Source of the DNA: Candidatus Woesearchaeota archaeon
Lineage (GTDB): Archaea > Nanobdellota > Nanobdellia > Tiddalikarchaeales > Tiddalikarchaeaceae
Length of the DNA stretch: 64,000 nucleotides
NCBI GenBank assembly: GCA_964457955.1
Contig: CAYWEY010000004.1
Span: 1,883-65,882, forward strand
Direction: 5' to 3'
The position numbers and the translations under genes were made by a program. The notes under the pieces were generated by a model. That model had not been told where the DNA came from and searched no databases. It was given only the letters and a program-made list of their open reading frames with translations. The stretch's first letter is position 1. Each line of letters begins with the position of its first letter. Shown here in pieces: positions 34,518-53,842 of this stretch.

Positions 34518-35179
34518 GAATCTTTTTTTTCACTTTATCAATAGTTTTTAACAACATATTATTAAAACTTGATAAATAAGGTATTATGAAATGTTTAAAC
34601 ACTTTTCTGATAATAAAAATATGAGACAATAAGAGCAATAATTAACATCAATCTCTTCATTAACAAACAATCCTATTCCGAAAGAAAAAATTACTCCCAT
34701 AAAAATAAATGAAACTATTAAGATGTAAATGATTATGGTTAAAAAATCCATTACTGCAAGCAGGAATAAGTGTGCTATCCCGAATTTTTTTTTGTTCTCC
34801 TTCTCTTCTAAGTAAAAGATAAAACACTATGGATAATATTATTGTAAATATCAGAGCAATCATCGAGTTTTTTTGGAAGAGGATTTTTTATAAAAAAAAG
34901 CATGAAAAAACCATATAATAATAGCACAAACTAAAACTATTGTAATATAGTGTAGTACGGGGTTTTTCACTTAAATCAATAATTATTGTTCTTCCTCTTA
35001 TTTTTGAAAAATATTTTTTTTTCTATTTAATAACAAAATATGCCAAGAAAGTGATAAATTATCCGGTTATTCCGAACATGAAACCAACTATTATTTCAGC
35101 AAATAAACTCATTAAATAATAATTTTTCTAAAGACATTATTTAAATCTTTTTAAAGAATTAAATAATTGAAGTGTTCTA

Positions 35180-47977: not shown

Positions 47978-49228
47978 ATGAGTAAGAAATTAAAGAAATA
48001 TTACAATATGAATGCAAGGCCTTTAATTAAGGCTGTTAATAATGACAAATTCAGTGATGAAGAATTAAGAGAATTATTAGAACACGAGAAAAAGAATAAA
48101 GACAGAAAAACAGTGGTTGAAGTAATGGAGAATAAACTGCCGGAAGAAGTTGATGAACTGGAGGAAGCAATTCCTATTGACTGGAAGATTCCTGTTGCTT
48201 TTGTTGCAGGAGTCATAATAACCAGCATTTTCTTCATGTTGTCTGGTGGTTCGGGAGCAACAATACCTCAGAGTGGAAGTCCAACAACAGGTGCAGTAAC
48301 AAGCAGTCCTTTAGTGACACTTACAATATTGAATGATGACGACTGTGCTTTATGCGATGCGAGCTGGGTTTCTCAGAGAGTTGGGATGGATTTTCCTAAC
48401 TTAACTGTTGATTATGTTGATATTAGTTCAAGCAGAGGGCAGGAATTGAAAGAAAATCTTGACATAAATAGTGTTCCTGTAGCTTTTTTTGACGACAGTG
48501 TTGAAGAAGCATCCAACTTCACAAGTTATAGCCAGAATGGCTGGATAGTTCAGGACGGAGAGTACTGGAAGATTAATATGCAGGGAACAAAATTATTGGA
48601 CAGACAACCTACAAGTAAGCCAACAGTGAGTTTATTCGTGATGAGTCAGTGCCCTTACGGGACTATTGCTCAGGAGAATATGGTGCCTGTAATGGAAGCT
48701 TTCGGAGACAGCATAGATTTCGAGATGCATTTCATAGGAAACGTTTTTACTGAAATAGAATGGAATACTATGAGCAGTGAGCAGAAGCAATATTATGAAA
48801 TGTATAATATGTGTGTTGAGAAAGAAAATGGAAAGAAATATTGCAGTCTGCACGGAGAACCAGAACTAATAGGGGATATTGCAGAATTATGTGCTATAGA
48901 ATATTATCCTGATAAAGCACTGGATTATGCATTGAGTTATATTAATAATGAATATGACTGGGAGCAGGCAGTAAGTGACACAGGATTAAGTATGAGTGTT
49001 ATGAGTAATTGCGTGAATGGCAGTGAAGGATTAGAACTTTATGAAGAAGATATTAAACTTGCAGAAGAACTGATGATTGGAAGCAGTCCAACATTCTTTT
49101 ACGACAATACAACCATGAGCAGAGCAAGTCCGGAAATAGCAATATGTACTTTGCATCCTGACTTAAGCGCATGCAGTGATATTTCATCAATAAATACGAA
49201 TACAGAACAGCCGCAGGGAACCTGCTAA
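47978..49228 (+). CDS. Membrane protein: N-terminal SAP/HeH-like 'YYxMNARPLI' module, one TM, two extracytoplasmic thioredoxin-like domains
   Basis: aa 6-53 KKYYNMNARPLIKAVN...ELRELLEHEKKNKDRKTVVEVM. TM at IPVAFVAGVIITSIFFML. Then CALC...VPVAFFDD and SQCPYG...SPTFFYD, i.e. CxxC plus cis-Pro thioredoxin-fold signatures twice. Confidence 0.6.
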   Translation: MSKKLKKYYNMNARPLIKAVNNDKFSDEELRELLEHEKKNKDRKTVVEVMENKLPEEVDELEEAIPIDWKIPVAFVAGVIITSIFFMLSGGSGATIPQSGSPTTGAVTSSPLVTLTILNDDDCALCDASWVSQRVGMDFPNLTVDYVDISSSRGQELKENLDINSVPVAFFDDSVEEASNFTSYSQNGWIVQDGEYWKINMQGTKLLDRQPTSKPTVSLFVMSQCPYGTIAQENMVPVMEAFGDSIDFEMHFIGNVFTEIEWNTMSSEQKQYYEMYNMCVEKENGKKYCSLHGEPELIGDIAELCAIEYYPDKALDYALSYINNEYDWEQAVSDTGLSMSVMSNCVNGSEGLELYEEDIKLAEELMIGSSPTFFYDNTTMSRASPEIAICTLHPDLSACSDISSINTNTEQPQGTC

Positions 49229-50361: not shown

Positions 50362-50519
50362 AATTATTAAAGAATAATATTTTTTATTAAAAATTTATCT
50401 AAAAATTTATAAAAAACATTTTTTTATAATCCATGTTGTTATGCTTGAAAAAATTGTTAAAAATATTGAATTAAATAGTGAAAAATTATTCAATATTTAC
50501 AGAATAATTCCTGAAATAA

Positions 50520-51332: not shown

Positions 51333-51965
51333 ATGAGTAAGGAATCATTGCTTGACTACTGGAGGAAGAGTGGAATAATCACTGATGAAAAAGTTTTGAA
51401 AGCTTTTAAGGAAGTTCCTAGAGAAGATTTTGTTCTTGAAAAAGATGGTGATGCTGCTTACGCCGACCACCCATTACATATAGGTGGTGGCCAGACAATA
51501 AGCCAACCCACTACAGTTATGATTATGACTCAGGCTCTTGAACTAAAGGAAGGTATGAAAGTACTGGAAGTAGGTGCTGGAAGTGGTTATCAGGCAGCAC
51601 TTATTTCAAGAATAATAGGGAGTGAGGGGAGAATAATTACTGTTGAGTTTTTAGAATCATTATATTCTTTTGCTAAAAAAAATCTTAAGGATTGCTCGAA
51701 TGTTAAAGTAGTTAAGGGTGACGGGAGCAAGGGTTATGAAAAAGAAGCGCCTTATGACAGAATAATCGTGACTTGTGCGGCTCCAAGTATTCCTCCTCCA
51801 TTGTTTGAGCAGTTAAGAATGAAGGGTATAATAGTCATACCTGTAGGAAGTTTGTACACTCAGAAAATGATAAAAGCAAAAAAAACAAAAAAAGGAATTG
51901 ATAAGAAAGATTTAGGTTCTTTCGCATTCGTGCCTCTCAGAGGAGAGTATGGTTTCAAAACTTAG
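51333..51965 (+). CDS. pcm: Protein-L-isoaspartate O-methyltransferase
   Basis: VLEVGAGSGYQAA SAM motif I in the PIMT context. 210 aa. Confidence 0.85.
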   Translation: MSKESLLDYWRKSGIITDEKVLKAFKEVPREDFVLEKDGDAAYADHPLHIGGGQTISQPTTVMIMTQALELKEGMKVLEVGAGSGYQAALISRIIGSEGRIITVEFLESLYSFAKKNLKDCSNVKVVKGDGSKGYEKEAPYDRIIVTCAAPSIPPPLFEQLRMKGIIVIPVGSLYTQKMIKAKKTKKGIDKKDLGSFAFVPLRGEYGFKT

Positions 51966-52186
51966 AAAAAACCTTTCTTTTTCTTCTTTTTTGGACTGAA
52001 CAAAACCATTAATAATATGAAGATTGGTATTCCAACAACTGACAATATTAGAAGCATTAAGAATAGTCTCACCACCATTATATCAATACCTGTCTGTTCA
52101 CTTATTGGTTTTGAAATTCCCAGAAATAATTTGTTTTCTTTCTTTATTTTTCTAGCCTTTTCTTTTAATGGTTCAGGCTTCAACAT
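51962..52186 (-). CDS. PspC-domain small membrane protein
   Basis: GIDIMVVRLFLMLLILSVVGIPIFILLMVLFSP fits the PspC pattern GID..VRL.F.LL...G...I.L....P. Confidence 0.4.
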   Translation of the reverse strand: MLKPEPLKEKARKIKKENKLFLGISKPISEQTGIDIMVVRLFLMLLILSVVGIPIFILLMVLFSPKKKKKKGFF

Positions 52187-52219
52187 CTTAATACTTAAAC
52201 TCTTAATCTCTTCTTTTTT

Positions 52220-52531
52220 TTAAGTCATTTCTTCTTTTATTGCTTCAATAACTGTCTTACGATTCTTATTCTTTTTCTCGTGTTCTAATAATTTCTTCAA
52301 TTCTTTCTTACTTAATTCTCCTTTATTAACCTCTTTAATTAATGGGCGTGCATTCATTCTGTAATATTTTTCAAGTCCAGATATTTCTTCTTTTATTGCT
52401 TTAATTACTGTTTTTCTGTTTTTGTTCTTTTTTTCATATTCAAGCAGTTTTTTTAATTCCTTATCTTTTAATTCTTTGTTTTTGATTTTATTAATTAACG
52501 GTCGAGCGTTCATTTCATAGTATTCTTTCAT
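52220..52531 (-). CDS. Tandem-duplicated SAP/HeH-like 'YYxMNARPLI' module protein
   Basis: Two copies, KEYYEMNARPLINKIKNKELKDKELKKLLEYEKKNKNRKTVIKAIKEE and EKYYRMNARPLIKEVNKGELSKKELKKLLEHEKKNKNRKTVIEAIKEE, that are paralogous to aa 6-53 of the 47978 protein. Confidence 0.55.
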   Translation of the reverse strand: MKEYYEMNARPLINKIKNKELKDKELKKLLEYEKKNKNRKTVIKAIKEEISGLEKYYRMNARPLIKEVNKGELSKKELKKLLEHEKKNKNRKTVIEAIKEEMT

Positions 52532-52575
52532 AAATAAAAAATAAAATATGATTATTTAAAAATCTAATTTTTTTT

Positions 52576-52656
52576 TTAATAATCTTCTAAATCATCATCT
52601 TCATCATCGTCTTCGTCATCATAGTCTTCATCGTCTTCGAATTCGTAAAATTTCAT
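52576..52656 (-). CDS. Tiny acidic ORF MKFYEFEDDEDYDDEDDDEDDDLEDY (26 aa) with a Shine-Dalgarno-like GGAGGT
   Basis: rc of 52576-52656; GGAGGTATAATTAACT immediately precedes the ATG. Below the ORF-track length cutoff. Confidence 0.25.
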   Translation of the reverse strand: MKFYEFEDDEDYDDEDDDEDDDLEDY

Positions 52657-52716
52657 AGTTAATTATACCTCCATAAACTTTTTTTAGAATAATCATTTTA
52701 ATTAGCTGTATTAATA

Positions 52717-52768
52717 TTTAAGATTTTCTACAACAAATTTTTAATGGGAAGTTTTTTAAAATCTTAAA
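52717..52768. promoter_or_regulatory. 11-bp perfect inverted repeat (TTTAAGATTTT ... AAAATCTTAAA, 30-nt spacer) overlapping the TATA-like TTTTTTAAAA 16-32 nt upstream of the orc1 ATG
   Basis: Left arm 52717-52727, right arm 52758-52768; the orc1 ATG is at 52784. Confidence 0.3.
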
Positions 52769-52783
52769 AATTCCTTTATTATT

Positions 52784-53842
52784 ATGAGTTTGTTTGATGA
52801 TTTTCTTGCAAGTGATCAGACTATTTTCAGAGATGAAACAATTCTTGATTATGATTATATTCCTGAAACTATTAATTTCAGGGATGAAGAGATTAATACT
52901 ATTGTGAGTAGTGTTAAACCATTATTTTTTAACCGTCTTCCAGTAAATTTGTTCATTCATGGTATTCCTGGAATAGGCAAGACGCTCGTTGTTAGGCATG
53001 TATTTGATGATTTAAGAAGTACAAGTAATGAAATAGTTCCCTGCTATATTAACTGCTGGAAATGCCAGACATACCATAGTGTTTTTGTTGAATTAAGTAA
53101 ATTCTTTGGTGTTCCATACCCTAGCAAGGGAGTGAGCACGGAAGAGATTATTAAAGGAATTACTAAAAAGACGGAGAATAAGAAAGGTGTTGTTATCTGC
53201 TTTGATGAAGTTGATAAGTCAAAAAGTCTTGATTTTATTTATCCTCTTGTTGAAGGATTTGGTAAAAAAGTAAGTATTATGATGATATCAAATTACAGTG
53301 ATTTCCTTGCAAGAATGGATTCAAGATTATTATCACGTCTTAATCTTGAAAACCTGAGTTTTGAGAAATATGATTATAATTCCTTTAACAATATTCTGAA
53401 GCAGAGGAAAAAATATGCTTTTTATCCTAATGTTGTTAAAGAAGAATCTTTTAAGAAAATTGTCAACTATTCTTATAAATCAGATGATGTTCGTGCAGGC
53501 ATCAGTTTGTTATTGAAGTCAGGAAGAATTGCTGAGAAGAATTCTTCAAAAAGAATAATTCCTGATTTTGTTGATGAAGCGATTAATTCATTGCAAGGTT
53601 TCAAGAACAAGAATAAATTAAGTGTTTTGAAAGATTATGAAAAAGAATTACTCGATATTATTAAGAATAATTTAGGGAGTATTACGGGAGAACTTTATGA
53701 AATTTTTAAAGAAAAAGTTAAGGATGTTAGTATCAGGACTTTCAGGAAATATTTAAATCATCTTGAAACATTGGATTTAATAAGAACTGAAGAAACCAGT
53801 TCTGGTTTCAGAGGAAAATCCCGTAAAATATACACGAAGTGA
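52784..53842 (+). CDS. orc1: Orc1/Cdc6 replication initiator
   Basis: AAA+ Walker A FIHGIPGIGKT, Walker B ICFDEVD, and a C-terminal winged-helix region. 352 aa. Confidence 0.85.
   Translation: MSLFDDFLASDQTIFRDETILDYDYIPETINFRDEEINTIVSSVKPLFFNRLPVNLFIHGIPGIGKTLVVRHVFDDLRSTSNEIVPCYINCWKCQTYHSVFVELSKFFGVPYPSKGVSTEEIIKGITKKTENKKGVVICFDEVDKSKSLDFIYPLVEGFGKKVSIMMISNYSDFLARMDSRLLSRLNLENLSFEKYDYNSFNNILKQRKKYAFYPNVVKEESFKKIVNYSYKSDDVRAGISLLLKSGRIAEKNSSKRIIPDFVDEAINSLQGFKNKNKLSVLKDYEKELLDIIKNNLGSITGELYEIFKEKVKDVSIRTFRKYLNHLETLDLIRTEETSSGFRGKSRKIYTK

Follow-up and report, generated by a model that had tools for sequence, protein, structure and literature searches.

The 103-amino acid (aa) ORF that lies head-to-head with orc1/cdc6 in a stretch of DNA from a Candidatus Woesearchaeota archaeon (64,000 nucleotides in length, hereafter the window) is best read as the N-terminal, cytoplasmic half of a split gene whose other half encodes a membrane anchor of the PspC type. 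The ORF consists of two successive copies of a small module which is uncharacterised and found across domains of life, and its gene model is corrected here. The best explanation, which joins the gene structure to a function and is held with about as much confidence as doubt, is that of a split PspC-type membrane protein whose module would bind a polyanion, most likely nucleic acid, as a tether. The features of the locus and of its surroundings are collected in Table 1.

Table 1. Features of the tandem-module locus, the third module copy and the orc1 neighbourhood. Positions are those of the window unless another sequence is named.
Feature	Position	Strand	Remarks
Tandem-module ORF, 103 aa	52220..52531	-	two ~48-aa modules; TAA stop at 52220-52222
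Module copy 1, residues 1-51	52379..52531	-	hmmsearch domain 1-51
Module copy 2, residues 53-103	52223..52375	-	hmmsearch domain 53-103
Eleven in-frame codons (KKEEIKSLSIK) between TAA and PspC-ORF ATG	52187..52219	-	homologous to the linker of fused orthologues
PspC-domain membrane ORF, 74 aa	51962..52186	-	Pfam PspC 28.0 bits (cutoff 25)
Third module copy, residues ~5-55	47990..48142	+	cytoplasmic N-terminus of a 416-aa protein, 47978..49228(+)
orc1/cdc6, divergent neighbour	52784..53842	+	NCBIfam TIGR02928 213 bits (cutoff 181); Pfam Cdc6_lid 50.6 bits
Dyad AGGAA/GGAA-N19/20-TTCC(T) around a TATA-like TTTAAAA box	52745..52776	.	just upstream of orc1; four-genome intergenic alignment
Same dyad in relatives	L006 5908-5945; L010 700-738; L021 5922-5958		approximate coordinates
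Acidic mini-ORF, 26 aa (MKFYEFEDDEDYDDEDDDEDDDLEDY)	52576..52656	-	GGAGGT ribosome-binding motif ahead; window-specific

The first-pass annotation described the ORF as a tandem duplicate with copies about 75% identical to each other, and the alignments bear this out. At the protein level, 35 of 49 residues are identical in local alignment (71%), and the value reaches 76% over a core of 46 residues. The DNA of the two copies is 72% identical, with a spacing of 156 nt (repeat family D1). The repeat is not due to chance or low complexity. Synonymous differences between the copies are saturated (pS 0.92) and nonsynonymous differences are few (pN 0.15), which argues for an old duplication whose two copies have both been kept under purifying selection. 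The pS value exceeds the ~0.75 expected at saturation, in a comparison of 46 codons only, and this excess may be noise or may result from selection against recombination between the repeats. The encoded protein is basic, with a pI of 9.8 and a net charge of +13. An identical protein, P0001, is present in the NCBI-derived collection, and an exact look-up returned no contigs for P0001 and P0004. Rfam and tRNA scans of the window found no RNA genes.

The whole window contains three module copies according to tblastn and six-frame searches, the next best match having E = 0.2. The third copy is carried by a membrane protein in which the N-terminal module is followed by one transmembrane (TM) segment and by an extracytoplasmic Cys-rich domain of thioredoxin/GILT-like type (Pfam GILT, 24.8 bits). 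It shares 52-54% identity with repeat 1 and 62-63% with repeat 2; the earlier estimate of about 65% is therefore close for the second repeat and slightly high for the first. Orthologues of this protein in the relatives L006 and L021 bear short polybasic tails where the window protein has the module, which suggests that the module was gained or swapped in within the lineage of the window.

The 103-aa ORF had been regarded as a stand-alone protein, a view that does not hold: it is in frame with an adjacent PspC-domain ORF from which one TAA separates it, and its relatives encode one fused protein. The ORF itself is without a PspC domain. The two ORFs are encoded on the same strand and in the same frame, 33 nt apart, and the minus strand from 52531 to 51962 reads as one frame with a single internal TAA (...EEMT-stop-KKEEIKSLSIK-MLKPEPLKEKARK...). 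In the NCBI annotation, the product of the PspC ORF is a separate 74-aa protein (P0121). An exhaustive profile search recovered single-chain fusions of one module with a PspC domain, namely, P0014 (131 aa) and P0033 and P0111 (136 aa), and the fused orthologues pass the Pfam PspC threshold with 35.9 and 37.6 bits. In BLASTP, the PspC ORF of the window matches the C-terminal halves of P0014 and P0033 at 6e-10 and 2e-11, and a three-way alignment with P0111 and P0014 is collinear across the TAA of the window, including the linker motif (K/R)PEP(I/L). The fused orthologues at the syntenic locus and the common strand and frame in the window identify module and PspC anchor as one unit.

The internal TAA is known from a single assembly, where it stands on one contig, and the split may represent a true fission, a recent decay into a pseudogene, or an error of assembly or sequencing. 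Should the stop have arisen through such an error or through recent nonsense mutation, the gene would properly, or ancestrally, encode a single module-module-PspC protein of ~189 aa. This is a real possibility, although we judge it the less likely outcome. Neither half is disrupted, both are conserved, the PspC ORF has its ATG at exactly the place that a restart would require, and TAA is a normal codon of termination in the window. On the other hand, the continuity of the frame is perfect, the stop does not interrupt the homology to the fused orthologues, the 103-aa protein was found on only one contig in a collection of 5.8 billion clusters, and the PspC ATG is without a clear ribosome-binding signal upstream. 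An artefactual or decayed stop alters the gene structure only, not the proposed function. Because TAA is an ordinary stop, and the commonest one in the window (29 of 48 genes), recoding is unlikely and a reassignment of the internal codon was rejected.

As a whole, the locus encodes a PspC-anchored protein and in this respect resembles the small membrane proteins of the PspC family (PF04024). In contrast to these, it was seen without PspA/B partners and without a psp operon context, and nothing ties it to the phage-shock response.

Judged from sequence searches, the module is a rare, mobile domain. A profile search, which the first-pass annotation had proposed, was performed with six modules as the basis of the profile and 1.84 billion cluster representatives as the database. 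It found homologues beyond the window; 109 proteins reach E ≤ 1e-3, and 14 reach E ≤ 1e-10. The family is thus real but rare. A second, word-indexed search with a 79-sequence profile gave 3 matches only. Among 110 members, no Pfam family of the local library covers the module at E ≤ 1e-4, and Pfam and NCBIfam gave no match to models of chromatin proteins (Alba, histone fold, Sul7d/Cren7, MC1, and similar). Sub-threshold Pfam and NCBIfam matches to SAC3, Tlp, and Rv1109c were dismissed as noise. PF26450.2 appears in a precomputed table for P0001 only and is absent there for P0002-P0004, despite their near-identical modules; local Pfam scans of the module proteins gave no PF26450 match, and no mention of this family was found in the searchable papers. 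The only significant library matches to the module are phrog_22690 (1.7e-9) and phrog_1983 (2.6e-8), and in BFVD uncharacterised tailed-virus proteins share its predicted fold with TM values of 0.7-0.83. These PHROG families are without annotated function, and the match consequently gives no mechanistic information. No matches were obtained by tblastn of phage records with the window protein, P0017, P0051, and P0026.

The carriers of the module are diverse. It forms a C-terminal appendage of ribosomal protein eL31 (P0004, P0012), is present in two copies in uS3 (P0009) and in RNA polymerase A'' (P0010), and occurs in KaiC-like (KaiC/DnaB-like) ATPases (P0022, P0067). In the ribosomal and RNA polymerase fusions, it is embedded in K-rich linkers. 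YgaP-like, PspC, and other membrane proteins bear it at their cytoplasmic end (P0002, P0013, P0014), other proteins consist of arrays of three to four modules (P0005-P0007), and many virus-like proteins of ~100-135 aa have it at the C-terminus. Distant relatives belong to Actinobacteria, haloarchaea, and tailed viruses. They include acidic haloarchaeal proteins (P0040, P0057) and proteins of high-GC bacteria, which have either histone-H1-like tails (P0043, P0066) or ten or more degenerate repeats (P0008, P0024); the tails of two actinobacterial members are of the histone-H1-like HC2/PAKKA type. The high-GC bacterial proteins P0008 (1381 aa) and P0024 (771 aa) contain six to ten or more degenerate repeats, which match the C-terminal two-thirds of the module only (...L..LAYEKAH.NRK.I...IETQ...) and in each case follow an LPF.GY motif.

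One genome, that of the Undinarchaeota MAG CAZGQF01 (L005 3434-4162), encodes at least four distinct proteins with the module. Three modules are found in a zinc-ribbon protein (P0006), and single ones in a YgaP-like TM protein (P0002) and in a KaiC-like ATPase (P0022). A further protein, P0005, has four modules in its 530 aa and, by eye, a possible C-terminal winged-helix-like region. The set looks like a lineage-specific expansion.

Of the AlphaFold models of the tandem protein that had been proposed, with and without DNA, the one without DNA was run. AlphaFold2 predicts three helices per module for the tandem protein (mean pLDDT 87.4, pTM 0.54). For a single module (copy 2), the pLDDT is 88.4 and the predicted helices span residues 7-16, 21-33, and 38-48, joined by 4-residue turns. 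These pLDDT values of 87-88, the low pN relative to pS, and the fold shared with viral proteins identify the module as a genuine folded domain. Foldseek, which is weak for 49-residue queries, returned nothing with E < 1 from the PDB for the tandem or the single model, and no SAP, HeH, or Rho structure for either. A profile search of PDB sequences gave nothing significant. The best match of that search, STEEP1 (STING ER exit protein; 8c6j_j residues 173-208, E = 0.0025), covers helices 1-2 and not the KNRKT turn; it reflects either chance similarity or a remote, partial relationship.

Two sets of columns are conserved in the family, N-A-(R/K) where helix 1 begins and E-x3-K-(N)-R-K-T-V in the turn between helices 2 and 3. 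The conserved residues cluster in one small polar patch, and the conserved E, K, and R could merely stabilise the helix 2/3 turn. The net charge of the module ranges from -12 to +12 across the family; hence, what the family conserves cannot be a generic electrostatic binding.

In several respects the module resembles the HeH, SAP, Rho_N, and LEM domains (PF12949, PF02037, PF07498, PF03020). It is a small helical appendage (35-50 aa) that has been joined promiscuously to the termini of ribosomal, polymerase, membrane, and phage proteins, and it holds exactly the same position as HeH/Rho_N in homologous capsid-adjacent phage proteins. However, it is predicted to consist of three helices with 4-residue turns and not of two helices with an extended linker, and it has a signature of its own, NA(R/K)...E-x3-KNRKTV. 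None of the four Pfam families matched the three window modules (E ≤ 10) or the 110 members (1e-4), whereas the same scan finds HeH and Rho_N in the Javan90 protein used as a control. In hhalign, the module profile was compared with an approximate HeH/SAP reference set, giving a probability of 1.6% and a pairwise P of 0.031 over 31 columns; the best pairing, which is not significant, places module helices 2-3 on HeH helices 1-2. The assignment of the module as HeH was not adopted on the basis of this result.

The function of the module can be approached through three independent domain displacements. The first concerns P0122, an orthologue at the same locus, which has kept the PspC-like half and in which a polybasic, K/S/T-rich tail of 55 aa replaces the module. 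The second is that of the orthologues of the 416-aa protein described above. The third involves P0028, in which a small phage domain is followed by the module on its C-terminal side. This domain has homologues directly after the major capsid gene in the Streptococcus phages Javan90 and Javan407, and these homologues bear a HeH/Rho_N domain (Pfam HeH, 33.7 bits) where P0028 has the module. Taken with the fusion partners that are nucleic-acid machines and with the PAKKA tails, which have been found experimentally to bind DNA (PMC5504291), these displacements point to a polyanion-binding adaptor, most likely for nucleic acid. Known nucleic-acid-binding domains gave no significant sequence or structure match to the module in Pfam, NCBIfam, PDB sequences, Foldseek searches of the PDB, or hhalign.

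The kinship of the module with polybasic DNA-binding tails (histone H1-like, PAKKA/KKS) is one of position, such tails replacing it at the same place in orthologues. Unlike them, the module is folded, has conserved positions that are not basic, and does not conserve its overall charge. In Rhodococcus, a PAKKA-type tail of MLDS tethers DNA to a lipid surface (PMC5504291), and a membrane-anchored DNA binder of the kind considered here would be similar in concept, as an analogy only. Homology with MLDS and the lipid-droplet proteins was dropped, as DNA binding there resides in PAKKA tails that are not module-like (PMC5504291). The NCBIfam match to the Rv1109c lipid-droplet family (24 bits, cutoff 110) is far below threshold.

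The same module could instead serve protein-protein docking or self-association, or could bind anionic lipid headgroups, recruiting its carriers to the membrane or to a partner that they share, with no binding of nucleic acid. We consider this a live alternative, though a less likely one. Membrane topology and the binding of anionic lipids are other possible functions of polybasic juxtamembrane tails, and two of the three displacement cases, in which such tails replace the module of membrane proteins, consequently fit lipid binding equally well. Yet topology signals need far fewer residues than the 55 of the K/S/T tail of P0122, and the HeH/Rho_N replacement in the phage homologues is left unexplained by docking or by lipid binding. 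A variable overall charge combined with a single small conserved polar patch would suit docking or lipid binding, and so would the cytoplasmic position of the module in several membrane proteins and the presence of several different carriers in one genome, as in the Undinarchaeota MAG. The recurrent fusions to ribosomal proteins and RNA polymerase within K-rich linkers, however, find no explanation in either role.

With the polyanion-binding adaptor as the preferred reading, the following course of events can be proposed. In the lineage of the window, the N-terminal module would have been duplicated in tandem. A single in-frame TAA would then have separated the module pair from the PspC anchor, leaving either a broken gene or a pair of neighbouring genes in the same orientation. 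The module would bind a polyanion, most likely nucleic acid, as a tethering appendage, and the 103-aa protein would hold DNA or RNA at the membrane via the PspC anchor.

A different role had been proposed from the position of the ORF beside orc1. In that proposal, it would encode a soluble DNA-binding protein associated with the nucleoid or the origin, which the duplication makes dimeric and which acts at an origin next to orc1. The distance itself is confirmed: the start codons of the two genes are 252 bp apart, close to the 250 bp first given, and the neighbour is indeed an Orc1/Cdc6 gene. The protein is basic, nucleic-acid binding is plausible from the architectures, and the intergenic region is AT-rich (19% GC), all of which would accord with an origin factor. 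We nonetheless regard this role as improbable, since the 103 aa make up the N-terminal half of a membrane protein and since the adjacency to orc1 is probably a matter of block synteny.

The co-occurrence with orc1 was examined in the window and in three syntenic relatives, namely, the P0111 locus (CG07/CG_4_10 'Archaea_38' genomes), the P0014 genome, and the P0122 genome. All four share a block in which STT3, SpoIIM, and Orc1/Cdc6 are followed by the orthologous gene, designated X, and then by PCMT, DHH/DHHA2, and a thioredoxin-like membrane protein. Gene X is head-to-head with orc1 in four of four genomes, all of one clade, and the association was to this extent upheld; however, it lies each time inside the same larger block. 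The Orc1 proteins of the relatives are 62% (P0111 genomes) and 67% (P0014 genome) identical to that of the window. Given the synteny of the larger block among relatives with Orc1 proteins of such identity, the adjacency to orc1 carries little independent weight. The other, paralogous module-bearing genes are not near orc1, and one orthologue, P0122, is without the module altogether, both of which speak against an origin factor. A scan of genome contigs yielded only one Undinarchaeota MAG and a scan of metagenome contigs only identical P0111 loci; these scans of representative genomes and metagenomes added no further lineage with gene X beside orc1.

The spacer itself had been put forward as an AT-rich candidate origin region. 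Its composition agrees with this description, but other features of the spacer do not. The spacer between orc1 and gene X measures 97, 78, and 83 bp in the relatives against 252 bp in the window, and a spacer of 78-97 bp leaves little room for an origin. In the relatives this room is filled by a promoter-like dyad, the invariant AGGAA...TTTA.AAA..TTCC, which is found in all four intergenic spacers. From its conservation and position, the dyad is probably the promoter of orc1 or an (autoregulatory) operator, and it may be a single Orc1 site. No ORB-like repeat family was found in positions 51900-53000, and GC-skew profiles gave no clear or interpretable switch. Elsewhere in the window, the longest intergenic region is 34518-35179 (662 bp, 23% GC), and the most AT-rich divergent spacer is 50362-50519 (158 bp, 13% GC).

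The acidic mini-ORF lies within ~155 bp of the window spacer for which the three syntenic relatives, with spacers of 78-97 bp, have no equivalent. Its product might be a small acidic partner of the basic module protein, or the ORF might have arisen by chance in a GAT/GAA-rich insert.

For annotation, these results correct a tempting but weak call of an origin factor and turn two adjacent small genes into one split gene. A more far-reaching proposal is that the module founds a new nucleic-acid-tethering family of DPANN-type archaea, haloarchaea, Actinobacteria, and tailed viruses, whose membrane-anchored form, kept head-to-head with orc1 in the present archaeal clade, would fasten the origin-proximal chromosome, or nascent transcripts and ribosomes, to the cell membrane; this proposal must be considered quite improbable and highly speculative. 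If polyanion binding is nevertheless the role of the module, it would be a new, small adaptor domain that functionally belongs with HeH and SAP, rare yet spread over archaea, bacteria, and viruses. Archaea with tiny genomes would have recruited it repeatedly for their ribosomal proteins, RNA polymerase, and membrane proteins, and it would offer a handle on how these archaea organise DNA or RNA at the membrane.
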